64,000 nucleotides of DNA from Clostridia bacterium (GCA_045636325.1 JAZTXH010000009.1:59479-123478), one strand, 5' to 3'. Shown: positions 42,245-63,450, numbered from the stretch's first letter. The notes: generated from the letters alone by a model not told the origin. Numbers and translations are program-made.

Positions 42245-44341
42245 ATGAAAAATATTCCCGATTTATTTGGCTCAATGGTTTTTAACACTCACGTTATGCG
42301 TGAGCGTCTGCCTAAATCAACATATGATGAGCTTCTCAAAGCGATAGATGAAGGTCTTCCTTTAGAGCCGGAAGTTGCAAACGTTGTTGCAAATGCAATG
42401 AAAGACTGGGCTATAGAAAAAGGTGTAACTCATTATACTCACTGGTTTCAGCCTATGACTGGTATTACTGCAGAAAAGCACGACAGCTTTATATCACCCT
42501 ATGGTGAAGATTCCGTTATAATGGAATTTTCCGGAAAAGAATTAATTAAAGGCGAGCCTGATGCATCAAGCTTTCCTTCCGGTGGTCTTCGTGCAACATT
42601 TGAAGCAAGAGGCTACACTGCATGGGACCCCACATCCTTTGCTTTTATAAAAGATAACACCCTTTGTATTCCCACTGCTTTTTGCTCATACACCGGCGAA
42701 GCACTTGACAAAAAGACTCCTCTTCTGCGTTCAATAGAGGTTATTGATAAGCAGGCAATGAGAATTCTGCGTCTTTTTGGAAATACAACCGCAAAAAAAG
42801 TTATTACAACCGTTGGTCCTGAGCAGGAATATTTCCTTATAGATAAAAAGCTTTATGATGAAAGAAAAGACCTTATTTATACCGGCAGAACTCTTTTCGG
42901 TGCTCCTGCACCAAAAGGTCAGCAGCTTGATGACCATTATTTCGGAACAATAAAACCTAGAGTTGCCGCGTATATGAAAGAGCTTGATGAGGAGCTCTGG
43001 AAGCTTGGTGTTCTGGCAAAAACAAAGCATAACGAGGCAGCTCCTGCACAGCATGAGCTTGCACCCATATTTGCTACAACAAATATTGCAACCGATCACA
43101 ATCAGCTTACAATGGAAATAATGAAAAGAGTTGCCACAAAACATGGTCTTGTATGTCTTCTTCATGAAAAACCGTTTCAGAGCGTAACCGGCAGTGGCAA
43201 GCACAATAACTGGTCACTTTCCACCGATACTGGCGAAAACCTTTTAAAACCCACAAGTAAGCCCCATGAAAACAAGCAATTTTTACTTTTCCTTTGCGCT
43301 GTTATCAAAGCAGTTTATGAACATCAAGATTTACTCAGAATTTCAATTGCCAGCGCAGGGAATGATCATCGTCTTGGTGCTGACGAGGCTCCGCCCGCTA
43401 TAGTTTCTATGTTTATAGGCGATGATTTGGAAGAAGTTTTGAATGCAATTGCAAACGATAAAGAATACATAAAGAACGCAACAAAATATATTGACAGCGG
43501 CACACATGCATTGCCAGATTTGAAAAAGGACACAACAGATCGTAACCGCACATCTCCATTTGCATTCACCGGAAACAAATTTGAGTTTCGTATGCTTGGC
43601 TCTTCTTTCTCTGTTGCCGCTCCCAATACAATTTTAAACACCATAGTTGCAAGTGTATTGGACGAATTTGCAACAGAGCTTGAATCAGCAAATGATTTTT
43701 CATCTGCGGTCGACGCCCTCATCAAGAAAACTGCAAAAAAATACAAAGATATTATTATTTTCAACGGCAACAACTATTCTGATGAATGGGTAAAAGAAGC
43801 TGAAAGACGCGGCCTTTACAACTTAAAAACTACTCCTGATGCAATTCCTCTTCTTACAAGCAAAAAGAATGTTGATTTGTTCACAAAATACGGTGTTTAT
43901 TCTGAAATTGAACTTCATTCAAGATGTGACATACTTTTGGAAAACTACTCAAAAATACTAAACATCGAAGCAAACACGATGCTTGAAATGGCCAAGAAAG
44001 ATATTCTGCCTGCAGTTATCAGCTTTACAAAAGAGCTTGCTGAAACATTAAATGCAAAAAAGACTCTTTCTTTAGATGTTTCATGCTTTGCAGAAGAAGA
44101 ACTTTTAAAGAGAGTTTCTCTTCTTTCTGAAAATCTCTACCGCAGAATCCAGACTCTTGAAAAAGCGGTTTCGGGCGCAAAAAATGTATCCGATACAGAA
44201 AAACTTGCCGTATATTATAAAGACAAAGTTCTTTCGGCAATGAATTACCTTCGCGAAAGCGCAGATACTTTAGAAACCATCGTTGGTGAAAAATACTGGC
44301 CATTCCCCTCTTACGGAAAGCTTTTGTTCTCAGTCAACTGA
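42245..44341 (+). CDS. glnN: glutamine synthetase type III
   Basis: 698 aa. GSIII-type N-terminus (FGSMVFN…[12 protein letters not shown]) and length. Confidence 0.9.
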
Positions 44342-44354
44342 TTTAAAGATAAAA

Positions 44355-44393
44355 CAAAAAATCAACTTCAAATTAATGAAGTTGATTTTTTTT
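44355..44393. terminator. bidirectional terminator between glnN and pgsA
   Basis: AAAAAATCAACTTC-aaattaat-GAAGTTGATTTTTTTT. Confidence 0.85.
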
Positions 44394-44395
44394 AA

Positions 44396-44965
44396 TTATT
44401 TCTTAAAATCAATAATGCTCCAATTATGTATTATGTATTCAGCTCCTGAATAAACAGTTATAAATACCATTACCCATATTCCGATTTCAATTGCGATGCT
44501 TACAAGGGTTATATCGTAAACATTAAAACATTTTGCCGCCATAATCGCAACAATAACAACAATCTGAATAACTGTTTTAAGCTTGCCTGAAAAACCTGCA
44601 GCAATAACCTTACCTGAGCCCATTGCAACAGTTCTTAATCCCGTAACCATAAATTCTCTTGCAATAATTATTATTACCGCCACAGAGTAAATCCAACCGA
44701 ATTCTATCATGCATAAAAGGGCGGAAATAACTAAAATCTTATCTGCCAAAGGGTCAATAAATTTACCAAAGTCCGTTACCTGATTATAATGCCTTGCAAT
44801 ATAGCCATCAACTCCGTCAGTTGCTGCCGCTACAATAAAGATTATCATTGCAATAAAGTCTGCACAACCTATCACCTTGGGCATATAATACCCCAACATA
44901 AAAAACACAATAAAAACCGGAATCATAAAAATTCTTACCATTGTTACCTTACTTGCTGTTGTCAT
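44396..44965 (-). CDS. pgsA: CDP-diacylglycerol--glycerol-3-phosphate 3-phosphatidyltransferase
   Basis: CDP-alcohol phosphatidyltransferase motif DGYIAR…G…DPLADK. Confidence 0.9.
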   Translation of the reverse strand: MTTASKVTMVRIFMIPVFIVFFMLGYYMPKVIGCADFIAMIIFIVAAATDGVDGYIARHYNQVTDFGKFIDPLADKILVISALLCMIEFGWIYSVAVIIIIAREFMVTGLRTVAMGSGKVIAAGFSGKLKTVIQIVVIVAIMAAKCFNVYDITLVSIAIEIGIWVMVFITVYSGAEYIIHNWSIIDFKK

Positions 44966-46320
44966 TTAACATCTTCCTTTCCGTACAAATCATATTCATC
45001 GCAATCAAGAATTGTAACCTTTAAAATCTCACCGGGCTCAACTTCTCTTTCAGCTCCGAAATATACAACCGAATCAATATCCGGACTGTCTGCCATGGTA
45101 CGACCCAGATAAAGCATATTTTCTTCATCAAATCCATCGCATATAACACTAAAAGTTTTTCCAATTTTTTCTTTGTTTAACTGCTCTGAAATTTGCATGC
45201 TGATGCGCATTGCCGCATCCCGTCTGTTTTCTTTTATTTCTTCATCAATCTGATTGTCTAAAAGATACGCCGGTGTGTCTTCTTCTTTTGAATATGCAAA
45301 AATTCCTACACGCTCCAGCTTATATTCTTTTAAAAACTCTAAAAGCTCTTGGAATTCTTCTTCGGTTTCACCGGGAAAACCTGCAATAAGGGAAGTTCTT
45401 ATGGTTGCATCAGGCATATACTTTCTTATTTTGCCAATAAGCGTTTTTATCTGCTCTGTATTGCTTTTTCTTCCCATTCTTTTTAAAACATTATTGTTTA
45501 TATGCTGAATGGGTATATCAAGATAATGACATATTTTTTTGCTTTCTGCCATTACTTTTAAAAGCCCGTCAGTTATAGATTCAGGATAACAATAATGAAT
45601 TCGTATCCATTTAATGCCCACAATTTTTTCAAGCTCACACAAAAGCTTATCTAAAGAAAACTCTCCAAAAATATCTATTCCGTATCTTGATGTGTCCTGA
45701 GCTATAACAATAATTTCCCGAACACCGCTTTCTGCCATCTGCTTTGCTTCAGCTATAATATCCTCCATAGCTCTTGAACGGTATTTACCCCGAAGTTTCG
45801 GTATAATACAGTAAGTACAATGGTTATCACAACCTTCAGAAATTTTAAGATACCCTATATGTGGACTTCCGCTTAAAATTCTTGGTAAATTTTCGGGAAT
45901 CTGCTCGTTTGCATTTCCATAAAGGCAAACTTCCTTTCCTTTCTCCAGCTCTTCTATAACTTCACAGATTTTATAAAAATCGCCCGTTCCAACAACTGCA
46001 TCAACCTCAGGAAGCTCTTTTTTAATATCACTGTGATATCTTTCTGCAAGACAACCTGCCATTATTAAAAACTTACATCCACCCTCATTTTTATATTCAG
46101 CCATATCTAAAACAGTTTGTATACTTTCTTCCTTCGCATCACCTATAAAACCGCAGGTGTTTACTATTATAATCTCCGCTTCCGAAGCATCAGACGCAAT
46201 CTCATATCCCTCTCCAGCCAAAATGCCAAGCATATTTTCACTGTCCACCAGATTTTTAGGACACCCCAAAGATGCAATGGCAACACTGAGTTTTTTATTA
46301 CTCAAATTCATCATCTCCAA
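44962..46320 (-). CDS. rimO: ribosomal protein S12 methylthiotransferase
   Basis: MTTase N-terminal cysteines (GCPKN…NTCGF), radical SAM CDNHCTYC, and a C-terminal TRAM domain. Confidence 0.85.
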   Translation of the reverse strand: MEMMNLSNKKLSVAIASLGCPKNLVDSENMLGILAGEGYEIASDASEAEIIIVNTCGFIGDAKEESIQTVLDMAEYKNEGGCKFLIMAGCLAERYHSDIKKELPEVDAVVGTGDFYKICEVIEELEKGKEVCLYGNANEQIPENLPRILSGSPHIGYLKISEGCDNHCTYCIIPKLRGKYRSRAMEDIIAEAKQMAESGVREIIVIAQDTSRYGIDIFGEFSLDKLLCELEKIVGIKWIRIHYCYPESITDGLLKVMAESKKICHYLDIPIQHINNNVLKRMGRKSNTEQIKTLIGKIRKYMPDATIRTSLIAGFPGETEEEFQELLEFLKEYKLERVGIFAYSKEEDTPAYLLDNQIDEEIKENRRDAAMRISMQISEQLNKEKIGKTFSVICDGFDEENMLYLGRTMADSPDIDSVVYFGAEREVEPGEILKVTILDCDEYDLYGKEDVK

Positions 46321-46774
46321 ACTCTATGTCACTTACGTATTCGTTAAGGCGCTTTTTTATATCAGAAAATCTATACCCGCGCGAAACTAAAAACCTTATA
46401 ACCTTGTCAGTCTTCTTTCTGTCGGATACATCATCAAGTCTTTTTGCTATTATATCCTTTATGGCTTTTGTTTCATCAATTTCGTCCATTTCAAAAAGCA
46501 CATCGTCAATGATAAAATCGTCTATTCCCTTATTTTTAAGGTCAAACCTTATTTTTCTCATCCCGTGCTTTTTAATATGTACAGCATCTGAAATATAGCT
46601 TTTTGCATATTCAAAATCATTTAAAAATCCATATTCTTCTGCCCACAAAATAACTTTTCCGACCGTTTCATCACTAAAGCTTGCTTTTGTAAGCTTATCT
46701 GAAAGCTCTTTTTTTGAAAGTCTGCGCCTTGAAATAAAACCTATGGCCTTTTCCTTTGCTTTTTCAAAATCCAT
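46298..46774 (-). CDS. recX: RecX family regulatory protein
   Basis: 158 aa. Repeated three-helix RecX pattern (…ISRRRLSKKELSDKL…). Confidence 0.75.
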   Translation of the reverse strand: MDFEKAKEKAIGFISRRRLSKKELSDKLTKASFSDETVGKVILWAEEYGFLNDFEYAKSYISDAVHIKKHGMRKIRFDLKNKGIDDFIIDDVLFEMDEIDETKAIKDIIAKRLDDVSDRKKTDKVIRFLVSRGYRFSDIKKRLNEYVSDIEFGDDEFE

Positions 46775-46790
46775 TTTTATATCTCCAAAA

Positions 46791-47633
46791 TCATAAAGAC
46801 TCTGTCTGCCCTTTTATGTAATCAATAAGGAGCTCATGAACATTTACGTCTGTCAGCTCATAAAGCATTCTTGCTCCCACAACATCCTCAATTTCATTAA
46901 GCTTCATTTCATCACCATCAAATATAAAATCTATACCTGCATATGTAAAATCAAAGTAGCCTATAACCTTTTCAATAAGTTTTCTTTCATTTGGTGATAT
47001 ATTGTAAAGCTCTGCTTTGCCACCAAGTGAAAAATTACTTCGAAAGTCAATATCCGAGCTTCTTAGTATCCCTGCAAGGATTTTGTTTCCTAATACATAA
47101 ACCCTTAAATCTCTGCCTGTTGTGCCTGCAATTTTCTGCACAAGAAAACAATCTGTCCCGTAACTTTTTACTGCCGCTTCAAGCTCATATTTATTGTTTG
47201 CAATGAATACGCCCTCTCCGCCGTGGCCGTCAGCCGGCTTTACAACACAAGGATATCTTATATCTTCTGCATCATATGAAAAAAAACGTCTGTCAAAAAA
47301 AAGCGTGTCCATCATAGGAATACCTTTATCAGCAAGATAAAAATGAGTTTTCCTTTTATCGTTGCATACATTAGAAATAAACGAATTATTAAAAACTCTT
47401 ACTCCCGCTTTTTCAAAAAATTCACTTAAAAACGGGAAGATACTTCTGTTAATAACAAACTGCGGAAATCCCCCGTTTACTTTTAATCCATCTTTATTTA
47501 TTCCAAACACAATATCCTGTGCATATTTAAGTTTTAAATCAATTCCACACGTGTGCGCATATTCAATAAGAGTGTGAATAAACCAGCGGTTTTTCTCCGC
47601 TTCAACTTTTCCGTATATAATCCATCCGGTCAT
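46791..47633 (-). CDS. divergent RimK-type ATP-grasp ligase (paralogue 2)
   Basis: 280 aa. YPCVVKPADGHGGEGV ATP-grasp block. The C-terminal metal-ligand block reads DFIF…NEIED instead of D…E-x-N. Confidence 0.7.
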   Translation of the reverse strand: MTGWIIYGKVEAEKNRWFIHTLIEYAHTCGIDLKLKYAQDIVFGINKDGLKVNGGFPQFVINRSIFPFLSEFFEKAGVRVFNNSFISNVCNDKRKTHFYLADKGIPMMDTLFFDRRFFSYDAEDIRYPCVVKPADGHGGEGVFIANNKYELEAAVKSYGTDCFLVQKIAGTTGRDLRVYVLGNKILAGILRSSDIDFRSNFSLGGKAELYNISPNERKLIEKVIGYFDFTYAGIDFIFDGDEMKLNEIEDVVGARMLYELTDVNVHELLIDYIKGQTESL

Positions 47634-47637
47634 ATTA

Positions 47638-48498
47638 TCATAGCCTGTCTTTAATATATTTTATAATCTCTTCACTTAAATCAATACCAGTGCAATGAAG
47701 AGTGCTTTTAAAATGAGGATTTGAATTCACTTCGCATATAATGCTTTCACCGTTTTTACCAAAAAGCACATCCACTCCTGCAAATTCAAGGCCAACAGCC
47801 TCGCATGCCGCAATCGCAATCTGTTTTTGCTCAACCGTTGCTTCTTCAGCTTTCATTTTGCCACCGTTTGAAATATTAGAGCGAAAATCGCCGCTTGTAT
47901 TATAGCGCAGCATTGATGCCACTGCCCTGCCGCCAACAACATTAACTCTTATATCTCTCCCTTTGCTTTCTTCTATAAATTCCTGCATTATAAACTCTTT
48001 TGCGCCAATTTTTTCTGCAATTTCTTTTGCTTCTTCAAAATTATTTGCAAGATAAACCTGCTGACCGAAAGAGCCGTAGCTTTCTTTAATTACCATAGGA
48101 TATCCCAAATCATCCCCGGCTTTTTTTAAAAAACCAAGATTATTATATCCAAAGGTCTCAAAGGTTTTAGGTGCAATATATGTTTTTGGCACTTTTATAC
48201 CCTTTTTCGCAAGGTATATTGCGCTAAGACTTTTACTGTCAGATATTTCAATCGCCCTTGCACTGTTAAACACCCGCACTCCCATATCCTCAAGAAGCAT
48301 GGCAAGCTTTACATCCTTGTCCCAGAAAAGCACAAAATCAGGTAAATCAACTTTTTCGCCGACCGCAAAAAACACATCACATGTTTTTTTAAGTTCAAGA
48401 GTAATTCCATACCTTTTTGATGCATCTAAGAGATATGCATATATCTCATTAAACTTTTTAATTTCTATAAAACTGTTAACAATAAGCCATCCGGTCAT
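47638..48498 (-). CDS. RimK-type ATP-grasp alpha-L-glutamate-ligase-like protein (paralogue 1)
   Basis: 286 aa. YPMVIKESYGSFGQQV, RSNISNGG and GVDVLF…ICEVNSNP motifs. Confidence 0.75.
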   Translation of the reverse strand: MTGWLIVNSFIEIKKFNEIYAYLLDASKRYGITLELKKTCDVFFAVGEKVDLPDFVLFWDKDVKLAMLLEDMGVRVFNSARAIEISDSKSLSAIYLAKKGIKVPKTYIAPKTFETFGYNNLGFLKKAGDDLGYPMVIKESYGSFGQQVYLANNFEEAKEIAEKIGAKEFIMQEFIEESKGRDIRVNVVGGRAVASMLRYNTSGDFRSNISNGGKMKAEEATVEQKQIAIAACEAVGLEFAGVDVLFGKNGESIICEVNSNPHFKSTLHCTGIDLSEEIIKYIKDRL

Positions 48499-48540
48499 AA
48501 GTCATTCCCCTGTTTTTTATACGATTAAAATTCTCAAATA

Positions 48541-48569
48541 ATTTTATCACATTACACAATTTAAGTCAA
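48541..48569 (-). promoter_or_regulatory. sigma-A promoter of the ATP-grasp pair
   Basis: Minus strand reads TTGACT (48564-48569), a 17-nt spacer, then TGaTAAAAT (-10 at 48541-48546). Confidence 0.65.
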
Positions 48570-48581
48570 TAAAAAGCATTG

Positions 48582-50039
48582 TCAAATTTCATCAAAACAA
48601 ACACTTATTTCCTTTTTCATTCCATGTGAGCCAAACACCTGCCATCTACCCTCACCAAACCTTTGAAATATAGCTTTTCTTTCATCGCGGCAAAGCGCAG
48701 AATCAGTATCAACCGAATTCATAAGCTTCGGTGCATACTGATTGTATTTCTTCTGTTCAGGCGTCATATCCTTTAAATTAATATAAATATCTCCTGTAAA
48801 AGATATTCGGTTTTTATAATCTATCAAAACGGTTTCACCTTGCAGATGACCACCGCTGCACTCATATACTTCAAAGCAAAATTCTCCGAAATTAAAAAAG
48901 CCGATTTGCCACATTAATGCGTTTTCTTGTTTATCTTCCCATAAAAATTGCAACTTTTCAGGATTCGGTGGCTTATATTCCGTAAGTGCCTTGCATATTT
49001 TCACATAAGGCTTATGATATCTGTTTCGCTCTCTAAATCCGTTTTTCCCTTCGTATTCATTTTTTAAACATTCACCGGTTTTATAGCTCACAAAAATTTC
49101 ATCAAACATATAAGCAAGCCCACAATGGTCCACATCAGCATGGGTTAAAACAATTTGCTTTTTTATCTGCTCAAATCCCTGCACAAGCTCATTATAAATC
49201 TTCGTCATTTCCTCTTTATAATACGTATATCCGCAATCTATAAAAAGGTATTTATCTTCGCTTTTTATAATAGCAGTATTACTGCCGCAAGGCGGCTCAA
49301 TTAAAATTATTTCGCTTTTTTCGCCTGCTGCGTGATGTGTTATACGGGGCTTGAAAGCATCTTTTCTGCTATTTGCAAGCATGCTTGCAAACTTACTTAT
49401 ATTATCAAATGTTTTATAAGGCAGTCGCCCCTGCTCATCTAAAATCTGCATAGCAAGATTTGAATTTATCAAAATTTCTTGCTTTGCCTCAGGATTAATT
49501 TGCCCCGCTTTAATAAGACTGTCCGTAAATGAATTATAAAAAATACTGTTATCAAAAATCTTTTCGGCATGGTTATAGTCTATAATATTTACGGGGCAAA
49601 TCTGCTTGGCTTTCTTAATAAAATTCAAAAATACAGACTTATCTTCCGTTAAAACTCCTACTTTAAATGCCTGTGTTTTTTTATCTGCTGCCTGATAACT
49701 TATATATGAGATATTAAAGTTATAATTATAAATAAGCCTTGCAATCTCTTTAGCGCTGCCGGGCCTGTTTTCAAGTAAAAATTCTATTAAAAAAACCTCT
49801 GCTGTTTTATTATTTTTTTGAAAATATCCGTTTTTTGAAAGTATTTCATCCGCTTTTTCAAGCTTATCTTGCTTTCCCTCTACATCTATAAACAAGGTAT
49901 TGGTATCTACTGCTTTATTATAGCTTACCCTTGTTATATTCACTCCAAGTTTTGCAAAACATTCACTCGCCTTAAAAAAGGCACTTGCATCATCAGACAT
50001 ATTTGCAATGTACGTTTTTTTCAAGCCAACCGCTCCCAA
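48582..50039 (-). CDS. tandem ACT-like domains fused to an MBL-fold metallo-hydrolase
   Basis: 485 aa. Two ~70-aa beta-alpha-beta-beta-alpha-beta-like N-terminal modules, then the MBL motif LTHADVDHCG. Confidence 0.6.
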   Translation of the reverse strand: MGAVGLKKTYIANMSDDASAFFKASECFAKLGVNITRVSYNKAVDTNTLFIDVEGKQDKLEKADEILSKNGYFQKNNKTAEVFLIEFLLENRPGSAKEIARLIYNYNFNISYISYQAADKKTQAFKVGVLTEDKSVFLNFIKKAKQICPVNIIDYNHAEKIFDNSIFYNSFTDSLIKAGQINPEAKQEILINSNLAMQILDEQGRLPYKTFDNISKFASMLANSRKDAFKPRITHHAAGEKSEIILIEPPCGSNTAIIKSEDKYLFIDCGYTYYKEEMTKIYNELVQGFEQIKKQIVLTHADVDHCGLAYMFDEIFVSYKTGECLKNEYEGKNGFRERNRYHKPYVKICKALTEYKPPNPEKLQFLWEDKQENALMWQIGFFNFGEFCFEVYECSGGHLQGETVLIDYKNRISFTGDIYINLKDMTPEQKKYNQYAPKLMNSVDTDSALCRDERKAIFQRFGEGRWQVFGSHGMKKEISVCFDEI

Positions 50040-50684
50040 TTACACATTTAAAAACAGGTAAATACCTATAAGGTTTATGCCTAGATTCGCCCCTGCATGA
50101 AGAAAATATCCACCCCAGATATTACCGCATTTTTCATCGACATAGCAAAAACAAATTCCTCCCGCAAAAAGCCCTATCATACAAAGAATAAATATAAACG
50201 GATTAAACCAGCCCGAAAGCATTGTAACATGATAAAGGGCAAAAATTGCAGAAGATATTATATATGCCGCCTTTTTATTTTTCTCCTTTAACGAAAAGAA
50301 TATGTAACCGCGGAAAAACAATTCTTCTATAAACGCATTTATAAAAATTATATTTGTAAACACAAAAATAAAATTTGATTTTGTGATGCTTTGATTTTCA
50401 AGTGAGCCTAAAATCATATCCGGGTCAAACTGTGCTTTTAAAACATTATATCCGATTATAATAATCGCCGCAATTAAAAACGCACCAACTCCGCACATAA
50501 GCATTGATTTTTTACTTTTTGTTTTTACAAACACATTCTTAAAATTATGTCTTATCAATAAAGGTCCACCCACAAAAAGCAAAATTTTTACGATTGATGT
50601 AAAAAGATAGGTGTTATAAGGCGAAAGATGCAAGAGAGAATAAAGTGCAGGTATTAGTGCTCCGATTAAAAAAGTTTTTATCAT
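50040..50684 (-). CDS. CPBP family intramembrane glutamic endopeptidase
   Basis: Polytopic protein with EELFFRG and FALYH motifs. Confidence 0.75.
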   Translation of the reverse strand: MIKTFLIGALIPALYSLLHLSPYNTYLFTSIVKILLFVGGPLLIRHNFKNVFVKTKSKKSMLMCGVGAFLIAAIIIIGYNVLKAQFDPDMILGSLENQSITKSNFIFVFTNIIFINAFIEELFFRGYIFFSLKEKNKKAAYIISSAIFALYHVTMLSGWFNPFIFILCMIGLFAGGICFCYVDEKCGNIWGGYFLHAGANLGINLIGIYLFLNV

Positions 50685-51226
50685 AGGCTAGCACCCTTTT
50701 CTTCTTTTGCATAGTTAATTAGCGAAACAATTGCATTTTTATCCGTAAAATCACCGTCAGCATCACAAAGGTCAATTAACATTTTTTCCATTTCGCTGGG
50801 ATTTTTTTTATTCCGCATTATCAGCTTTAATGCCTTTATTGCATTCCTGTGCGGTATGGAAAGTTCAGAAAGAATCATTTTTCCAAGAAAATTAAATGTT
50901 TTTATATTTTCAGGCAAGCCGTTTTTAAAGTTTTTTTGGATAACCATTTTATTATAATATTCACTGCACTCAACAGGCGTAAGCCCCGTTGTAAAAATAA
51001 TAATTTTTTTATTTTTTAAAAGCTCAATATTTTTTGTAATAAGACTTATTCCTGCAATAACCTCAGCATAAAGCCCTCCGCCGTAAATAATGGTGTCGTA
51101 TTCTTCAAGGTCGTTTATCTTTACATTTTTTGCATCCTTTGCTTCACACTCAAGAGCCCCCGCAATCCATTCTGCATAAGCTTTTGTTGAGCCGTATTTT
51201 GATTTATATACCACAATTGCATTCAT
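50681..51226 (-). CDS. flavodoxin-domain protein (HemG-like fold)
   Basis: 181 aa. N-terminal IVVYKSKYGSTK flavodoxin-like motif. 4-nt overlap with the CPBP gene. Confidence 0.6.
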   Translation of the reverse strand: MNAIVVYKSKYGSTKAYAEWIAGALECEAKDAKNVKINDLEEYDTIIYGGGLYAEVIAGISLITKNIELLKNKKIIIFTTGLTPVECSEYYNKMVIQKNFKNGLPENIKTFNFLGKMILSELSIPHRNAIKALKLIMRNKKNPSEMEKMLIDLCDADGDFTDKNAIVSLINYAKEEKGASL

Positions 51227-51297: not shown

Positions 51298-52686
51298 TTA
51301 TAAATTTTTGTTTCTATTTTCTTCTCGACATAGCAGTGCAACCGCCTCGACGTGTGTCGTATGTGGAAACATATCAACGGGCTGAACCTTTAAAAGTTTA
51401 TATCCGCCGTTTTCATAAAGATATTTTAAATCCCTTGCCAAAGTGGCAGGATTACACGAAACATAAACAATTTTTTCCGGTGCCATTTTTAAAATAGTGT
51501 TTAATGCAAGCTCGTCTGCACCCTTTCGTGGCGGGTCAAACACAACCACATCCGCCCTTTCCCCGTTTGAATATAAATAATCTGTGATTTTTCCTGCATC
51601 GCCTGCATAAAATGACAGATTTTCAAGACCGTTGTTTTTTGCATTCAGCTTTGCATTTTCTATAGCCTTTTCAACAATTTCAATTCCGATAACCCTTTTT
51701 GCCTGCTTTGCCATAAATATTGATATTGTGCCCGCTCCACAATAAAGGTCAAAAACTGTTTCATTTCCTTTAAGACCGGCAAAATCCACCGCTGTTTTAT
51801 ATAAAACTTCGGTCTGGTCATGATTTATCTGATAAAAGCTTTCAGCTGATATTTCAAACACATAATCTTCCAAAGTGTCTTTTATGGTTTTTGAACCGTA
51901 AAGGCTTATATATCTGTCACCTAAAATAAGATTTGTTTTTTTGTTGTTTATATTAACAAGAATTGATGTAACAGACGGTGCATTTTCCAAAATAAGCTTA
52001 ACAAGTAAATCGGAATCCTTAAGCTCTTTTGTTGCCACCACAACGACCATCAAATCATTTGATGTTTTTCTTACAAAAATATGCCTCACCTCACCGATGT
52101 GCATTTTTTCATCATAAGCACGGCTTTGGGTAAATCGCATATATTCTTTAACTGCAAAAATAATATTTTTGCATTCTAAAGGACCCGTGATACAGTCATC
52201 AATTGCAACAACATCGTGGCTTCTTTGTTTAAAAAATCCGCACACAACCGCACCGTTTTCACCTGTCGACACCGGAAACTGCATCTTGTTTCTGTAATTA
52301 TAAGGATTTTTCATTCCTGCTACATTGTAAACTTCGACATCTGAAAAGCCGCCTATTCTTTCAAGTGCATCAACTACAACCCTTTTTTTCATCTCAAGCT
52401 GATATGAATAATCAATGTGCATCAGCTGGCAACCACCGCATTTTTTAAATGCATCGCAAGCAGGCCTGGCTCTGTAGGGTGACTTTGTTTTAAAACTTAA
52501 GATTTTTCCGTATGCAAAACTTTTATTTACCTTAACAATTTTTATTTCGCACACATCACCAACTACGCCGCCATGCACAAACACAGTAAATCCGTCTATT
52601 TTACATATGCCTTCGCCACTGCTTCCAAATGCAGTAATTTCGGCTGTGTATATCAGATTTTTCTTTACAGAAAGTATCTGTGTCAC
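51298..52686 (-). CDS. rlmD: 23S rRNA (uracil-5)-methyltransferase RlmD/RumA family
   Basis: N-terminal TRAM, cysteine cluster C..C..GGC, SAM motif DLYCGAGT and the nucleophile block YVSCNP. GTG start with a GGAGGAA SD. Confidence 0.85.
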   Translation of the reverse strand: MTQILSVKKNLIYTAEITAFGSSGEGICKIDGFTVFVHGGVVGDVCEIKIVKVNKSFAYGKILSFKTKSPYRARPACDAFKKCGGCQLMHIDYSYQLEMKKRVVVDALERIGGFSDVEVYNVAGMKNPYNYRNKMQFPVSTGENGAVVCGFFKQRSHDVVAIDDCITGPLECKNIIFAVKEYMRFTQSRAYDEKMHIGEVRHIFVRKTSNDLMVVVVATKELKDSDLLVKLILENAPSVTSILVNINNKKTNLILGDRYISLYGSKTIKDTLEDYVFEISAESFYQINHDQTEVLYKTAVDFAGLKGNETVFDLYCGAGTISIFMAKQAKRVIGIEIVEKAIENAKLNAKNNGLENLSFYAGDAGKITDYLYSNGERADVVVFDPPRKGADELALNTILKMAPEKIVYVSCNPATLARDLKYLYENGGYKLLKVQPVDMFPHTTHVEAVALLCREENRNKNL

Positions 52687-57897: not shown

Positions 57898-57908
57898 ATA
57901 TCTGTCTC

Positions 57909-58583
57909 CTACTTCTGAATTATTCTTACCTTGTTTCCATTCTTGAGGCCGGCTGAGTTTGCATCATCAGTATCAATATGCATCTCAACATTAAAATCAT
58001 CACGAACTCGAACCTGAACACCATAAAATTTTGTAGTTTTTAAGTTTTCGCCTTCTATCATAACGTCAACATAATCATTATCCTTAATGGCGTGCTTTTC
58101 GGCATATTCAGGAGTTAAGTGTATATGGCGGTTGGCAATGATAACGCCTTCCTTTAAATATACGCTACCCTTAGGTCCTACAATAACCAGTTTTTCCGAA
58201 CCCTTAATTTCACCTGAAGGTCTCACCGGAGGGCTAACCTTTAAAACAAACGTATCTGTTCTTGAAATTTCTACTTGAGTATTTTTTCTTACCGGACCCA
58301 AAACCCTTACCTTTTCTATACTTTTCAGTGATGGACCAACCAAAGTAACAAACTCATTTGAAGCATACTCTCTGCCCATAAGAGTTTTAAACTTTGTAAG
58401 CTCATATCCTTTACCGAAAAGAGTGTCTAAATCTTCACGGCTAAGGTGAATGTGTCTTTGTGACACACCTACCTTAATCTCTCCATCATCAGATTCCTTA
58501 TCACTTGCCTGCGGTGCACCGCTTTTATTTATATCAGCAATAACTTCTGCTACTATCTTTTCAATCTGTGCTGCATCGTACAT
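57909..58583 (-). CDS. pduL: phosphate propanoyltransferase (PduL-type phosphotransacylase) with an N-terminal encapsulation peptide
   Basis: Duplicated PduL motifs (GVSQRHIHLS, IIANRHIHLT). An amphipathic N-terminal helix AAQIEKIVAEVIADI. Confidence 0.85.
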   Translation of the reverse strand: MYDAAQIEKIVAEVIADINKSGAPQASDKESDDGEIKVGVSQRHIHLSREDLDTLFGKGYELTKFKTLMGREYASNEFVTLVGPSLKSIEKVRVLGPVRKNTQVEISRTDTFVLKVSPPVRPSGEIKGSEKLVIVGPKGSVYLKEGVIIANRHIHLTPEYAEKHAIKDNDYVDVMIEGENLKTTKFYGVQVRVRDDFNVEMHIDTDDANSAGLKNGNKVRIIQK

Positions 58584-58600
58584 TTATTTCACCTCACAAA

Positions 58601-59248
58601 TTACTCATTCATATCAAAAAACTTAACAATTTCGCCTGATACATTTGCAATAACTTCACAACCGTATACCTTACCAAGCCTTGATGCCGCATTACTGCCG
58701 TTTTCCAAAGCTGATTTAACATCAGAAACTCTGCCCGCAATGATAAATGTACAAAGTCTGCCTCCAAGGCGCTTTTCTGTATGCACAAGGCGTATGTTTG
58801 CCGCCTTAAGCATATTGTCAAGACCTTCTATAGATGCAACAAGCCCCTGAACCTCCAAAAGACCAATGGCACCTGTATAGCTCGGCACAAATTCCCCTTT
58901 TCTTGATTTTTCAAGGTTTTCTTTAAAATGCTTGTTGTATTTATCTTTATTTATATCTGCAAGATACGCCATCTTGTCCACAGTATCCTCAGGTCTTGGA
59001 ATAACATGAGAAACAATAAACTTTCCGCAATCCTTTGCATAAGCGCTTCCTGCTTCAACAGCCGCGTTAACTGCATCGACATTGCCCTCTATCTTTACCA
59101 CCATAACAAGCGGTGCAGGCACATCTGTTCTTATTGGTCTGTTTCTGTCAAAAGCGACAATCTGAACGTCAGCCGCTTTTGCTGCTGTGTCTGCCACACA
59201 AACCGCAGTTGTAAAGCTGTAAACCTCAATCAAACCTAATGCTTTCAT
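58601..59248 (-). CDS. tandem-BMC-domain shell protein (BMC-T)
   Basis: 215 aa. Two non-permuted BMC domains (ALGLIEVYS… and AIGLLEVQG…). Confidence 0.75.
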   Translation of the reverse strand: MKALGLIEVYSFTTAVCVADTAAKAADVQIVAFDRNRPIRTDVPAPLVMVVKIEGNVDAVNAAVEAGSAYAKDCGKFIVSHVIPRPEDTVDKMAYLADINKDKYNKHFKENLEKSRKGEFVPSYTGAIGLLEVQGLVASIEGLDNMLKAANIRLVHTEKRLGGRLCTFIIAGRVSDVKSALENGSNAASRLGKVYGCEVIANVSGEIVKFFDMNE

Positions 59249-59265
59249 TTATAACACTCTCCGTA

Positions 59266-60693
59266 TCAAACAATATGTAGTCCGTCAGCCATTACGCATC
59301 TTCTCTGACGAGTAAAGCTTCTTGCTGATGTAATACCCTCACCGGTAGGTCCTGCAATAGTAAATGTTGTATGACCTTCACCCCCTGCACCGATACCTGC
59401 ATAAGAAGGAGCATTCTTAACAAATATTGTTGTTTCAACTGCACGCGCAAATGCGGTAAGTCTGTCAACATTCTTTGAATGAATATGTGCACTGTGGCGG
59501 TTGCCATGTTCTGCCTTAACTGCCATATTTATAGCTTCTTCAATATCATTAACTCTAACAATAGCAAGAATTGGCATCATCATTTCAACCTGAACAAAAG
59601 GATGATTTTCTTCTGTTTCACAAATAATCAGTTTAGCATCAGCCTCAATTCCAAGCTCTTTTAAGAACTTCTTTGCATCTTTTCCTACCCATTTTTTATT
59701 TATAGAATATTTACCGTCTTTTTCAACAAGACAAAGCTTAACCAAATCATCAATCTGCTTACCCTTAAGAAGATATGCACCTGCATCCTGCATGTAAGCA
59801 ACCAGCTGGTCTGTAATACTTGCAAATGCAAAACATTCTTTTTCTGCAATACAGGGAAGGTTATTGTCAAAGCTTGCACCTGCAACAATATCAGATGCCG
59901 CCTTTTTAATATCAGCAGTATCATCTACTATAACAGGAGGATTGCCTGCACCAGCACCTATTGCCTTCTTGCCTGAAGACAAAAGTGCACGCACAACGCC
60001 TGGGCCACCTGTTGCAACAAGCATCTTTACAAGAGGAGATGCCATCATTTCATCTGAGCTTTCCTTTGTAGGCTGCTCTACTGAAACAACTAAATTTTCA
60101 GGACCGCCTGCTTCAAGAATTGCGCGGTTTACCAAATCAACTGCGTAATTTGCTGTTTTGCACGCATTAGGGTGGGGATTGAAAACAACTGCGTTACCGC
60201 CTGCAATCATACCCATTGAGTTACATAAAACTGTTTCACTGGGATTTGTAGAAGGTGTTATACTTCCAATAACGCCGTAAGGTGCCATCTCTATAAGTGT
60301 AAGACCTGCATCGCCTGTAAATACCTTCGGCTCCAAATCCTCTGTACCAGGAGTCTTTTTTGCCACAAGCTGATGCTTGATAATCTTATCAGGCACATTA
60401 CCCATACCTGTTTCTTCAACACCAAGCTTTGCCATTTCTTCTGCTTCCTGTAATGTAAGCTTTCTAATATTTGAAATCATCTGTTCTCTCTGCTCAACTG
60501 TATATGAGCGGAACTGAGCATATGCCTTACCTACTGCATCCAAAGCTTCGCCCATTGTTTTAAATACACCCTTCTGCGCATGACACTTGCAGTCACCACC
60601 GCAACTGCCGCCACAAGAACATTTGCTCTCGCCATCCATAACGCTCATAACTGCTTCAACAATTTTTGATAACTGTGTTTCATCAATCTTCAT
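59266..60693 (-). CDS. CoA-acylating aldehyde dehydrogenase (PduP/EutE type) with an encapsulation peptide and a Cys-rich linker
   Basis: Catalytic block NNLPCIAEKE. N-terminal helix ETQLSKIVEAVMSVM. Linker CSCGGSCGGDCKCH at residues 25-38. Confidence 0.85.
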   Translation of the reverse strand: MKIDETQLSKIVEAVMSVMDGESKCSCGGSCGGDCKCHAQKGVFKTMGEALDAVGKAYAQFRSYTVEQREQMISNIRKLTLQEAEEMAKLGVEETGMGNVPDKIIKHQLVAKKTPGTEDLEPKVFTGDAGLTLIEMAPYGVIGSITPSTNPSETVLCNSMGMIAGGNAVVFNPHPNACKTANYAVDLVNRAILEAGGPENLVVSVEQPTKESSDEMMASPLVKMLVATGGPGVVRALLSSGKKAIGAGAGNPPVIVDDTADIKKAASDIVAGASFDNNLPCIAEKECFAFASITDQLVAYMQDAGAYLLKGKQIDDLVKLCLVEKDGKYSINKKWVGKDAKKFLKELGIEADAKLIICETEENHPFVQVEMMMPILAIVRVNDIEEAINMAVKAEHGNRHSAHIHSKNVDRLTAFARAVETTIFVKNAPSYAGIGAGGEGHTTFTIAGPTGEGITSARSFTRQRRCVMADGLHIV

Positions 60694-60748
60694 ATCACAT
60701 TGCTCCTGTCTTTAAAAATATCTATCACAAAAAACTTAATTTTCTACT

Positions 60749-61297
60749 TTATAAAATTGCCTGCCATAGCTTTTTATCGGGATTTGCAATAACAGAACTA
60801 TCAAGAAACATTCCTGCTCCGCCTGCTTTTTCTTTTGCACGTTCAATTGCCGCACTTACAGCTGCAATTTCACCTGTTATAAGCATATAGCTCTTACCGC
60901 ACATTCCCCTTGCAAGCCTTAACTCTATAAGCTCAACCATGCTGGTCTTTGCCGCTTCATCTGCTGCAACAATCATACTTGCCGCACTGTATGTTTCCAA
61001 AACACCCAGCGCCTTTGCATTCTCAATCTCACCGGTACCATATATTGCAGGAATAACCGACTCGTGAGGATTACCAAGAACAAAGCTGTCAATCATTTTA
61101 TCACCACATAAGCTTTTAGCCGCATCCACACAAGCACGCACCGCACTTATCTCCCCCGAAAAAAGCATAATATACTTACCCGGACACACCGTCTGAGCTT
61201 CAATAATTTCCACTTCAGCAGTTTTAACAACCATATCAGCAGCATACATACCTGCCGAAACAGTCTGATATTCTATCATTCCAATTGCACTTCTCAT
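60749..61297 (-). CDS. PduT-like tandem BMC shell protein
   Basis: Two BMC domains with QTVCPGKY (the Cys position that ligates a 4Fe-4S cluster in PduT). Start set to the ATG with a GGAGGAGAG SD. Confidence 0.75.
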   Translation of the reverse strand: MRSAIGMIEYQTVSAGMYAADMVVKTAEVEIIEAQTVCPGKYIMLFSGEISAVRACVDAAKSLCGDKMIDSFVLGNPHESVIPAIYGTGEIENAKALGVLETYSAASMIVAADEAAKTSMVELIELRLARGMCGKSYMLITGEIAAVSAAIERAKEKAGGAGMFLDSSVIANPDKKLWQAIL

Positions 61298-61314
61298 ATT
61301 ATTCTCTCCTCCGC

Positions 61315-62646
61315 TCACGCATCAATCACAACAAACCTGTCGCATACTTCTTTTACTTTTCCGCTGACAGATGCATGAATGTCTGTTCCTAAAGCATCTA
61401 AGGGTGCTTTGGCAATAACATCGCCCAAATTCACCTTGTCGCCTTTTTTAACAACCGGCACGCAACCCGCACCGATATTTTGCGCCATTGAAATCTTTAC
61501 TCGTTTGATTTTCAATTCTTCTTCCGTTAATTTTGCTTCTCTATCATATTTTTTAAGATTTAATCTTGCCGTTAATCTTGACATAGACACTCTACGGTAA
61601 GAAAAATCCTTCTTTTCGTCTTTAAGTTCACGTTTTGGTGGCTTTATGCCATTTTTTCTAAGCCCGCTTCTGTACTCATCAATAAGAGTCTTTGGCGAAA
61701 GCATTTGATTACAAGCAAACATCTCACACAAGCCGCACTGCGAACAAAAGAATGTGTCAAGCATTGCGTCTGTATCAAGCACTGTTCCCGAAGACGCTGC
61801 ATGCATAAAAACAGCTGGGTCAATTGGGTATCCCAATGCATTTCTTGGGCATAAATCCGTGCACATTCTGCACTGACAACACGCACTCATTGCCCTTTTC
61901 ATACCGATAGACGGATTAATCAGCCTTTTTGTAACTATATTATGTTCTTTTGGCATAACAAGAATTGCATTGCTTGTTTTAGTTACCGTATCAGTTTCGT
62001 TTACTATTCTGCCCGTCATAGGACCACCGCCTATCAACACACAGTTTTCTATAGTTTTTCCACCACAAAGCTCTATAAGCTCACCATATGTTGTACCAAT
62101 CGGCACTTTTAAGGTTTTTGCCGTTTCTACCTCACCTGTAACAGTTACATATTTATGGGTAACCGGCAATTTTTCCTCTACTGCATTATAAATGTTTAAT
62201 ACTGTTTCAACATTAAATACTATACATCCTATCTGAATAGGAATTCCCCCCGGCGGAACACGTTTCTTTGTTGCCTCATGAATTAAAACAACCTCGTCTC
62301 CGGCAGGATATATTTCAGGCAAAGTGCACACGCTTACACCTTCGAAAGCGTCAATATAACTCATAACTGAATCATAAGCTTCTTTGTATGAGCCTTTAAG
62401 ACAAATTATTACTTCCTTTGCCGAAACCGCTTTTTTTATAAGGTCAAGACCTTTTAAAATTTCCAGGGCATAATTTGCCAGAAGCTGACGGTGAAGTTTT
62501 AAAAGCGGCTCACATTCAGCACAATTCAAAAGGATAGTTTGCGCTCTTTCGTCAAGCTTAGCATAGCTTGGAAAGCCCGCACCACCGGCACCTGCTATTC
62601 CGTTGTCTTTTAAAATTCCTTTTAGCTCTTCAAGCTTCATTTGCAT
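61315..62646 (-). CDS. PduS/RnfC-like flavin- and 4Fe-4S-binding oxidoreductase
   Basis: 443 aa. GAGGAGFPSYAKL, an SLBB-like middle region, and two CxxCxxCxxxCP ferredoxin motifs. Confidence 0.75.
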   Translation of the reverse strand: MQMKLEELKGILKDNGIAGAGGAGFPSYAKLDERAQTILLNCAECEPLLKLHRQLLANYALEILKGLDLIKKAVSAKEVIICLKGSYKEAYDSVMSYIDAFEGVSVCTLPEIYPAGDEVVLIHEATKKRVPPGGIPIQIGCIVFNVETVLNIYNAVEEKLPVTHKYVTVTGEVETAKTLKVPIGTTYGELIELCGGKTIENCVLIGGGPMTGRIVNETDTVTKTSNAILVMPKEHNIVTKRLINPSIGMKRAMSACCQCRMCTDLCPRNALGYPIDPAVFMHAASSGTVLDTDAMLDTFFCSQCGLCEMFACNQMLSPKTLIDEYRSGLRKNGIKPPKRELKDEKKDFSYRRVSMSRLTARLNLKKYDREAKLTEEELKIKRVKISMAQNIGAGCVPVVKKGDKVNLGDVIAKAPLDALGTDIHASVSGKVKEVCDRFVVIDA

Positions 62647-62671
62647 TTACCCCATTTGTCTGATTCTATTA

Positions 62672-62938
62672 TTATAAGTTCACCCAGTCATCAACGATAC
62701 CTACGATAGCGGCATCAACCGGTGAAGTGTCCATACTGCAACCTATTCTTGCTGCGCTTCCAGTTGCAATCAAAACAATTTCACCTATTCCGGCACCAAC
62801 GTTATCAACAGCAACTATTCTGCCTTCGCCCATGCCTTCCATGGGTGAAACTATTAAAAACTTACTTCCAACAAGATTTTCATTTTTTCGTGTCGCAACA
62901 ACACTTCCTACAACCTTACCAACAATCATGAATTTCAC
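62672..62938 (-). CDS. EutN/CcmL-family pentameric vertex protein (BMC-P)
   Basis: 88 aa. (M)IVGKVVGSVVATRK N-terminus. The start could be the GTG at 62938 or the ATG at 62929. Confidence 0.85.
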   Translation of the reverse strand: MKFMIVGKVVGSVVATRKNENLVGSKFLIVSPMEGMGEGRIVAVDNVGAGIGEIVLIATGSAARIGCSMDTSPVDAAIVGIVDDWVNL

Positions 62939-62966
62939 CCGTTTCCTTATAAAGTAAGCCTATATT

Positions 62967-62998
62967 ATGGCAGACGGATTTAAAAGTCCGCCTGCCAT
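62967..62998 (-). other. intercistronic GC-rich hairpin between the BMC-H and BMC-P genes
   Basis: ATGGCAGACGGA-8 nt-TCCGCCTGCCAT: 12-bp arms with one mismatch and no U-run on the coding (minus) strand. Confidence 0.5.
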
Positions 62999-63029
62999 TT
63001 TTAACAGGCACATAAATTTACCTTGCTAA

Positions 63030-63434
63030 TCAAATAGCGGGTAAAATCTTTTCAACGTCACCGTGAGGTCTGGGAATTACGTGTACAGCTACTAATTCAC
63101 CAAGCTTTGATGCAGAGCTGGAACCTGCCTCTACAGCAGCTTTAACCGCACCTACGTCACCTCTTATCATAACGCTTAGAAGACCGCTACCGATTTTCTC
63201 TGTACCAACCAAAGTAACGTTTGCAGCCTTTAACATTGCGTCAGCAGCCTCTACTGCTGCAACTAAACCTCTTGTTTCTACCATACCTAATGCTTCCATT
63301 GCCATTTTTACTTCCTCCTTTATTTTTTCCTTTACTTCATCTTTTATTTCATTAACCGCTGCAGTTGCAGTCGGCTTATCAGCTCTTACGCTTTTTGCAC
63401 GGCTTCTTTTTGCCGGCGTCTTTTTTTCTTCCAT
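63030..63434 (-). CDS. BMC-H shell protein with a 43-aa charged N-terminal extension (alternative internal start at 63305)
   Basis: The C-terminal 91 aa is nearly identical to the neighbouring PduA/EutM-like BMC-H. Both M1 (AGGGGTGA SD) and M44 (AAGGAGG SD 8 nt upstream) have ribosome-binding sites. Confidence 0.8.
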
Positions 63435-63450
63435 TTTAAATCACCCCTGA

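Follow-up and report, generated by a model that had tools for sequence, protein, structure and literature searches.

Gene Content and Organisation of the Locus

A block of five genes occupies positions 46,791–51,226 of a 64,000 nt stretch of DNA from a Clostridia bacterium (GCA_045636325.1, JAZTXH010000009.1:59479-123478), and this whole stretch is referred to here as the window. In order of transcription, the genes encode a flavodoxin, a CPBP-type membrane protease, a protein with ACT and metallo-beta-lactamase (MBL) domains (ACT-MBL), and two RimK-like ATP-grasp ligases (lig1 and lig2). An original prediction, made from the sequence alone, had described these five open reading frames (ORFs) and their domains; all are present on the minus strand and were confirmed by Pfam and NCBIfam. 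The block is part of a longer, uninterrupted run of minus-strand genes that extends from rlmD to a hairpin beyond pgsA (Table 1).

Several of the predicted junctions were borne out. The flavodoxin and CPBP genes overlap by 4 nt, lig1 and lig2 are 4 nt apart, and the ligases run on into recX-rimO-pgsA, with a gap of 16 nt between lig2 and recX, an overlap of 23 nt between recX and rimO, and an overlap of 4 nt between rimO and pgsA. The one sizeable gap lies directly upstream of lig1. The coding sequences of lig1 and lig2 open with an identical 12 nt sequence (ATGACCGGATGG, encoding MTGW; 48487-48498 in lig1 and 47622-47633 in lig2), despite a protein identity of 30%.

Table 1. Genes and other features in the part of the window that surrounds the five-gene block.
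Feature	Position	Strand	Remarks
rlmD	51298-52686	minus	Heads the uninterrupted minus-strand gene run
Flavodoxin, 181 aa	50681-51226	minus	Flavodoxin_5 PF12724, 81.7 bits
CPBP/Rce1-like intramembrane glutamic protease, 214 aa	50040-50684	minus	PF02517, 66.6 bits (cut-off 22.4)
ACT-ACT-MBL gene	48582-50039 as listed; likely 48582-50024 (480 aa)	minus	ACT and Lactamase_B
Sigma-70-like promoter pattern, TTGACT-17-TAAAAT with TG	48541-48569	minus	Pattern match only, in the 83 nt gap 5′ of lig1
lig1, RimK/LysX-class ATP-grasp ligase, 286 aa	47638-48498	minus	RimK Pfam 143 bits, TIGR00768 197.2 bits
lig2, diverged lig1 paralogue, 280 aa	46791-47633	minus	RimK Pfam 81.3 bits, TIGR00768 144.9 bits
recX	46298-46774	minus	RecX domain confirmed by Pfam/NCBIfam
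rimO	44962-46320	minus	RimO 516.8 bits
pgsA	44396-44965	minus	PgsA confirmed by Pfam/NCBIfam
Bidirectional terminator-like hairpin, 15 bp stem	44356-44391	both	3′ of pgsA, ends the operon

Conservation of the Gene Neighbourhood

The neighbourhoods of the five genes were compared across species from two anchors. For the ligases, the lig1 alignment was scanned against one genome per species, and the 80 loci obtained from other species, which include at most 10 kb of flanking sequence, were searched by tblastn with all nine window proteins. For ACT-MBL, 83 loci were collected from a metagenome scan and three look-ups, of which 53 carry more than 1.5 kb of upstream sequence and 43 more than 1.5 kb of downstream sequence.

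No homologue of ACT-MBL or CPBP was found within 10 kb of the ligases in any of the 80 ligase-anchored loci, and only one (L026) has a flavodoxin homologue, which is distant and encoded on the other strand. From the other anchor the result was similar: no ligase lies downstream of ACT-MBL in the 43 informative loci, CPBP lies upstream of it in one of 53 (L081, 100% identical and from the same species), and a flavodoxin of 32% identity is found about 1.7 kb away in two loci. The block is not kept at the level of gene neighbourhood, which is the outcome that the original prediction had itself named as speaking against a common system.

The closest relatives available carry the two halves apart. 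A trio of flavodoxin, CPBP and ACT-MBL genes is present in L164 at 62–71% identity (CPBP 71%), and the genes that come after it are unrelated and run in the opposite direction. A separate contig from the same sample (L167) carries lig1-lig2-recX-rimO-pgsA, with lig1 72% identical to that of the window and preceded by a solute-binding-protein gene, and an 80% identical lig1 in another locus heads the same operon. As the trio and the ligase operon occur on separate contigs with different flanks, the halves are separate even in the nearest available relatives. The junction of the ligases with the housekeeping genes is also restricted. Among the 80 ligase-anchored loci, recX-rimO-pgsA lies beside the pair only in L001, and overall the window, L001, L167 and L169 are the only cases of this arrangement that were found; the proximity to RimO that had been pointed out earlier is present in the window but specific to this lineage.

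The 4.4 kb block and its continuation therefore consist of three juxtaposed units, namely the flavodoxin-CPBP-ACT-MBL trio, lig1-lig2, and the housekeeping genes recX-rimO-pgsA. The reading we prefer, to which we assign a probability of roughly 0.6, is that the block consists of independent units that lie side by side only in this lineage, and that lig1-lig2 is a conserved module of RimK/LysX-class ligases. The original proposal was that all five genes form one new system for peptide or oligo-amino-acid ligation, in which the ligases would build the product, the ACT domains sense amino acids, and the MBL and CPBP proteins trim or reverse the modification. The tight spacing in the window, without a terminator from ACT-MBL to lig1, and the retention of the trio in one relative are in its favour, but with both halves combined in 0 of 80 and 0 of 43 loci, with CPBP upstream of ACT-MBL only within the same species, with the halves on separate contigs in the nearest relatives, and with ACT-MBL and CPBP homologues occupying unrelated contexts, it is very improbable. 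The caution attached to that proposal, that a linkage of the two halves was unproven, was justified by these results.

The lig1–lig2 Pair

The ligase pair is itself widespread. At least 577 species, for the most part Clostridia of the gut and rumen, carry a relative of lig1, and lig2 lies directly downstream of lig1 in 72 of the 80 loci, with one of the eight exceptions truncated by a contig end. Loci with an adjacent pair span Lachnospiraceae, Oscillospiraceae, Christensenellales and other groups. The genes on either side differ: in one large Lachnospiraceae-type clade, tepA-ylzJ-ftsK is found upstream and a HAD phosphatase gene and fhs downstream, and in other genomes the flanks include aspS and a DHFR-like gene, proC, or spoIIGA with a sporulation-type sigma-factor gene, among others. 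Such widely varied flanks fit a self-contained two-gene module.

A strong internal promoter had been predicted upstream of lig1. The sigma-70-like pattern is present there as a good match to the consensus, in the sole sizeable gap of the block, but promoter-like matches are not enriched over shuffled sequence (34 found across the region, 35.2 expected), and as such matches are no commoner than in shuffles, this match taken alone is weak evidence. Several other genomes (L001, L006, L016, L035, L050 and L067, for example) also have patterns of -35 and -10 type directly upstream of lig1, and these support an independent promoter such as that of the window. In the lineage of the window, the pair is probably transcribed from its own putative promoter, together with recX-rimO-pgsA.

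Two functional links suggested by neighbouring genes were considered and rejected. Genes connected with sporulation (spoIIGA, a sporulation-type sigma-factor gene, tepA/ylzJ/ftsK and a SleB-like gene) recur near the pair, but their strands and distances vary, and the sigma-70-like appearance of the promoters upstream of lig1 also disfavours such a link. A link with folate, suggested by the fhs and DHFR-like genes near the pair in some clades, was discarded: each such case is limited to a single clade, and the genes lie on a different strand or belong to a different transcription unit.

Family Placement of the Ligases

Both ligases pass the RimK family model TIGR00768 (cut-off 143.4 bits), lig2 barely so, and both score far above the cut-off of 21 bits for PF08443. 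Placement in a subfamily rests on the curated cut-offs of four equivalog models, and all four scored far below them: LysX/ArgX (TIGR02144; lig1 149.2 and lig2 105.3 bits, cut-off 275.6), MptN (NF040720; 125.1 and 82.4 bits, cut-off 350), RimK (NF007764; 106.9 and 54.9 bits, cut-off 331) and CofF (TIGR04443; 77.9 and 37.7 bits, cut-off 300). The description of the two proteins as paralogous RimK-like ligases thus stands, and they fall outside the characterised subfamilies. The two are 30% identical (110 bits) and slightly more similar to one another than to any RimK, LysX or ArgX of solved structure, which suggests an old tandem duplication. By these scores, lig1 and lig2 appear to be a new, uncharacterised subfamily of the well-known RimK/LysX kind of ligase.

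An AlphaFold2 model of lig1 (mean predicted local distance difference test score, pLDDT, 92.6) matches ArgX best, with a TM-score of 0.86 (root-mean-square deviation 2.4 Å), followed by LysX (0.84) and RimK (0.82–0.83). The best match of lig2 by sequence in the Protein Data Bank is also ArgX.

Comparison with the known members brings out likenesses and differences. RimK (4IWX, 5ZCT, 7QYR) belongs to the same PF08443/TIGR00768 family, has the same three-domain ATP-grasp fold, and shares with lig1 the catalytic Lys, Gly-rich loop and D...E-x-N residues. It is encoded by one gene, however, whereas here there are two diverged tandem paralogues without partners of the rimA/rimB type, one of which (lig2) carries E-x-E-D in place of E-x-N. 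LysX/ArgX (1UC8, 3VPD, 3VPB, 5K2M) include the top structural match of lig1 and the top sequence match of lig2, and the LysX model is the highest scoring of the equivalogs for both proteins, but the pair has neither a gene for a LysW-like carrier nor genes of the lysine or arginine pathways nearby. MptN and CofF are alpha-L-glutamate ligases for tetrahydromethanopterin and coenzyme F420 in methanogens. They belong to the RimK family and are a precedent for paralogous RimK-type ligases that act on small-molecule carboxylates. Clostridia are not known to make either of these cofactors.

Active Sites and the Status of lig2

The complete metal triad that had been read in lig1 is D243...E256-V-N258, and it is invariant in all 65 sequences aligned, as is the ATP-binding K138. 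In lig2, the corresponding region does read NEIED, as predicted (D235...E247-I-E249-D250). In all 68 orthologues the canonical Asn is replaced by Glu (E249), and the next residue is an invariant Asp (D250), while K132, the GHGG loop, Q166, D175, R177, D235 and E247 are invariant or nearly so across the same set. A signature fixed in every orthologue points to selection and not to decay.

The NEIED sequence had led to the suggestion that lig2 is a scaffold or specificity subunit, and a non-catalytic role of this kind within a lig1-centred enzyme is an unlikely alternative. It would account for the greater divergence of lig2, the loss of the Asn of E-x-N, the clade in which lig1 has no adjacent lig2 (described below), and the narrow margin by which lig2 passes the family model (144.9 bits against 143.4), but a pseudoenzyme would be expected to lose K132, the Gly-rich loop, Q166, D175/R177, D235, E247 and E249-D250, all of which are retained in the 68 orthologues, and Glu is still able to bind Mg2+. 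Because the ATP- and metal-binding residues are intact and NEIED is fixed, we favour lig2 as an active second enzyme, with a putatively altered metal or substrate chemistry.

Operon Partners, Mechanism and Possible Acceptors

In eight loci, the pair is the second half of a tight, same-strand operon of four genes, which encode a protein of the N-formylglutamate-amidohydrolase (FGase) family, a membrane protein with a double-psi-barrel (DPBB) match, lig1 and lig2 (L005:8110-11819, L010, L015, L020:2774-6408, L026:2510-6158, L027, L032:8018-11682 and L039). The spacing between intact genes ranges from a 17 nt overlap to a gap of about 65 nt. L015 has two ORFs in place of an intact second gene, the ORF call in L027 covers only part of the ligase pair, and the L039 contig begins within the FGase-like region. 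The first protein matches PF05013 in five of seven members (best E-value 9e-11). The second, of about 430 aa, has a weak CDC48_N/double-psi-barrel match in seven of seven and a C-terminal hydrophobic tail. Both gave only marginal matches in a sequence search of solved structures and in an NCBIfam scan. In the lig1 tree, the eight loci are spread over several sub-branches of one region, and their outer flanks differ; neither of the two genes that precede the pair is found within the 64 kb window. FGase-family enzymes hydrolyse the amide bond of N-acyl-glutamate, and this activity, taken with the tight operon, would fit glutamyl-amide chemistry with a dedicated hydrolase.

In the mechanism put forward for the pair, lig1 and lig2 would use ATP and Mg2+ to form an acyl-phosphate on a carboxylate, and each would then couple the activated carboxylate to the alpha-amino group of an amino acid, most likely an acidic one such as L-glutamate. 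A single acceptor would probably be modified by the two in turn or by a hetero-oligomer of both, with lig1 performing the canonical step and lig2, with its fixed E-x-E-D, a second step of different chemistry. The FGase-family enzyme of the same operon would probably turn over the product in some lineages. The data show the gene content, that the pair is conserved and the block is not, the family placement and the conservation of the active sites, whereas we infer the amino-acid substrate, the acceptor, the sequential or heteromeric action and the promoter. The acceptor may be a small molecule, a protein or a peptide of the envelope.

A modification of one specific protein, perhaps ribosomal or membrane-bound, by the addition of amino acids to a C-terminal or side-chain carboxylate, comparable to that of S6 by RimK or of LysW by LysX/ArgX and with the FGase-family enzyme as eraser, is possible although unlikely. 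The closest solved structures (ArgX, LysX and RimK, TM-scores 0.82–0.86) all act on a protein C-terminal glutamate, and the conserved membrane-anchored CDC48_N/DPBB-like protein is encoded directly upstream of the pair in the eight operons. On the other hand, neither ligase reaches the cut-off of the RimK or LysX equivalog model, the C-terminus of the DPBB protein (...SSKRNMR) is not an acidic tail, no LysW-like zinc-ribbon ORF with such a tail lies within 2.5 kb of the pair in the loci where it was located, and CofF and MptN, from the same family, act on cofactors.

A further reading, in which lig1 and lig2 form a hetero-oligomer that would install a reversible amino-acid (glutamyl) tag on a protein or envelope component in Clostridia, with the invariant E-x-E-D site of lig2 carrying out a second step of different chemistry and, in some lineages, the FGase as eraser and the DPBB protein as adaptor, is somewhat more doubtful.

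A third candidate acceptor, a cell-envelope precursor or small peptide such as the carboxylate of a peptidoglycan stem peptide, with peptidases recycling the product, is more doubtful still. An S66 LD-carboxypeptidase gene lies directly downstream of lig2, on the same strand, in six loci (L024, L036, L062, L064, L065 and L069), the FGase-family amidohydrolase and the membrane protein are upstream in another group, and in the window the sigma-70-like pattern precedes the pair, which is apparently co-transcribed with pgsA. The S66 association, however, is limited to a single clade of close relatives and has to be taken as one event. Beside the pair there is no recurrent mur, fem or other gene of wall synthesis, and the idea takes its lead from the variation of stem peptides in general.

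Evidence against the Preferred Reading

Several observations weigh against the reading of the block as independent units that include a conserved ligase module. At the level of the block, no terminator was found between ACT-MBL and lig1, so read-through from one to the other is possible in this organism. The lack of conservation holds for gene neighbourhood, and the five genes may still co-occur elsewhere in the same genomes; the trio, retained in one relative at 62–71% identity, may be a small operon with a function of its own.

For the pair, there is a clade in which lig1 has no adjacent lig2 (L011, L022, L025, L054, L061, L070 and L073), although the contig of L022 stops 153 nt past lig1 and is uninformative on this point. 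In four loci of this clade, lig1 is divergent from aspS and a DHFR-like gene. Here lig1 may work alone, or lig2 may have been relocated. The second ligase also evolves faster, with a median identity to the window copy of 39% against 53% for lig1, and the Arg of its F-R-S-N motif is Lys in 28 of the 68 sequences; with this variation, lig2 may conceivably have a regulatory or specificity role.

Searches around the pair for features that might point to its substrate were negative. Neither a riboswitch nor a T-box turned up near the ligases when the whole window and seven ligase loci were scanned with Rfam. In the 79 of 80 loci where the pair was located, no conserved small ORF lies within 2.5 kb of it, and none that would encode a LysW-like carrier (a small zinc ribbon with CxxC...CxxC and an acidic tail). 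The small ORFs near the pair are shadow ORFs inside ftsK and other genes, and the short intergenic gaps of the window contain no LysW-like ORF. A full-text literature search found nothing on this ligase pair, and an exact-sequence look-up of lig1 gave no match. The mechanism for lig1 and lig2 is put forward on sequence, structure and gene context.

The matches returned by the Rfam scan were one tRNA and two TwoAYGGAY RNAs, all away from the ligases. The latter two are on an Acetatifactor contig, at L005:1201-1366 (plus strand, 81 bits) and L005:20296-20460 (minus strand, 74 bits), and are unrelated to the ligases.

The Flavodoxin, CPBP and ACT-MBL Genes

The flavodoxin belongs to the HemG-like Flavodoxin_5 family. 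Apart from the window, only the close relative L164 has it beside CPBP and ACT-MBL, and it is part of the lineage-restricted trio and not of the ligase module. The motifs EELFFR, FALYH and HAGAN are readable in the CPBP translation and match the family motifs EExxxR, FxxxH and HxxxN. Just 29 homologues of this protein were found at E ≤ 1e-5, and those of 53% and 37% identity adjoin mutS/ssb or sugar-metabolism genes; the coupling of flavodoxin and CPBP is confined to a narrow lineage.

The ACT-MBL gene has three candidate start codons, TTG at 50039 (used in the ORF listing), TTG at 50024 and ATG at 50000. The second is the likely start, because the family consensus begins with MKKTYI, which corresponds to TTG 50024, and because a GGGAG box lies 8 nt upstream. 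Translation from this codon gives a protein of 480 aa, similar to homologues of 478–481 aa, while an NCBI-sourced database entry (P0121, 472 aa, 97% of the query) implies a start at ATG 50000. The statement that CPBP abuts the MBL gene is correct if translation begins at TTG 50039, but with TTG 50024 there is a gap of 15 nt, which is still tight.

ACT-MBL has a large and strikingly conserved family, with 3772 homologues at E ≤ 1e-5 and a mean column identity of 75% across Clostridia, and some of the entries are labelled Treponema or Spirochaetales. It normally stands alone, with neighbours that vary across the 83 loci, and nothing connects it with the ligases. By Pfam, the ACT domain scores 29.2 bits and Lactamase_B (PF00753) 28.6 bits (cut-off 22.7). 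The predicted pair of ACT domains was confirmed in part: the second ACT reaches the Pfam threshold, but the first falls below it and is seen only as a low-confidence beta-alpha-beta-beta-alpha-beta pattern in the structural model, where it is followed by the second ACT, a helical linker and the MBL domain.

Structural matches of ACT-MBL were generic (B1 lactamases, ODP and flavodiiron proteins; TMq about 0.33, 13–15% identity) and confirm the MBL fold. Motif 2 reads H-A-D-V-D-H, invariant in the family alignment, in place of the canonical HxHxDH, so that neither hydrolase chemistry nor the identity of the metal should be assumed. The MBL fold is shared with flavodiiron and ODP-type proteins, which are among the fold matches, and the motif is carboxylate-rich (H-x-D-x-D-H) and recalls the H-x-E-x-D-H carried by diiron MBL-fold proteins. 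A non-zinc site (Fe or Mn) is conceivable. ACT-MBL fits flavodiiron and ODP proteins no better than it fits B1 beta-lactamases, however, and differs from them in its two N-terminal ACT-like domains. A PADLOC scan of the five proteins gave no defence-system match except a weak, partial one between ACT-MBL and LmuA (20.9 bits over 50 residues).

Other Features of the Window

On the far side of pgsA, a plus-strand ORF of 698 aa (42245-44341) converges on pgsA and shares with it the bidirectional hairpin; judged by eye, its product looks like a type III glutamine synthetase. Towards the end of the window (about 57900-63450, minus strand), several ORFs with N-termini of the microcompartment-shell type (e.g., MKALGLIEVYS...) adjoin an ORF of aldehyde-dehydrogenase size, and from these N-termini the region is probably a bacterial microcompartment locus.

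Implications

A system of five genes would have meant a new pathway, but the evidence speaks against it and effort in that direction is not warranted. The ACT-ACT-MBL family, with its thousands of members and unusual H-x-D-x-D-H motif, may merit study of its own. For the ligases, the invariant E-x-E-D metal site of lig2 poses a small, clean question in enzymology. If reversible glutamyl tagging proved true, it would be a writer/eraser system as yet undescribed among Gram-positive anaerobes. Ribosomal protein S6, carrier proteins and cofactors are all glutamylated by enzymes of the RimK family, and to identify the product of the lig1-lig2 pair would therefore add a modification or a metabolite to the biology of abundant gut anaerobes.

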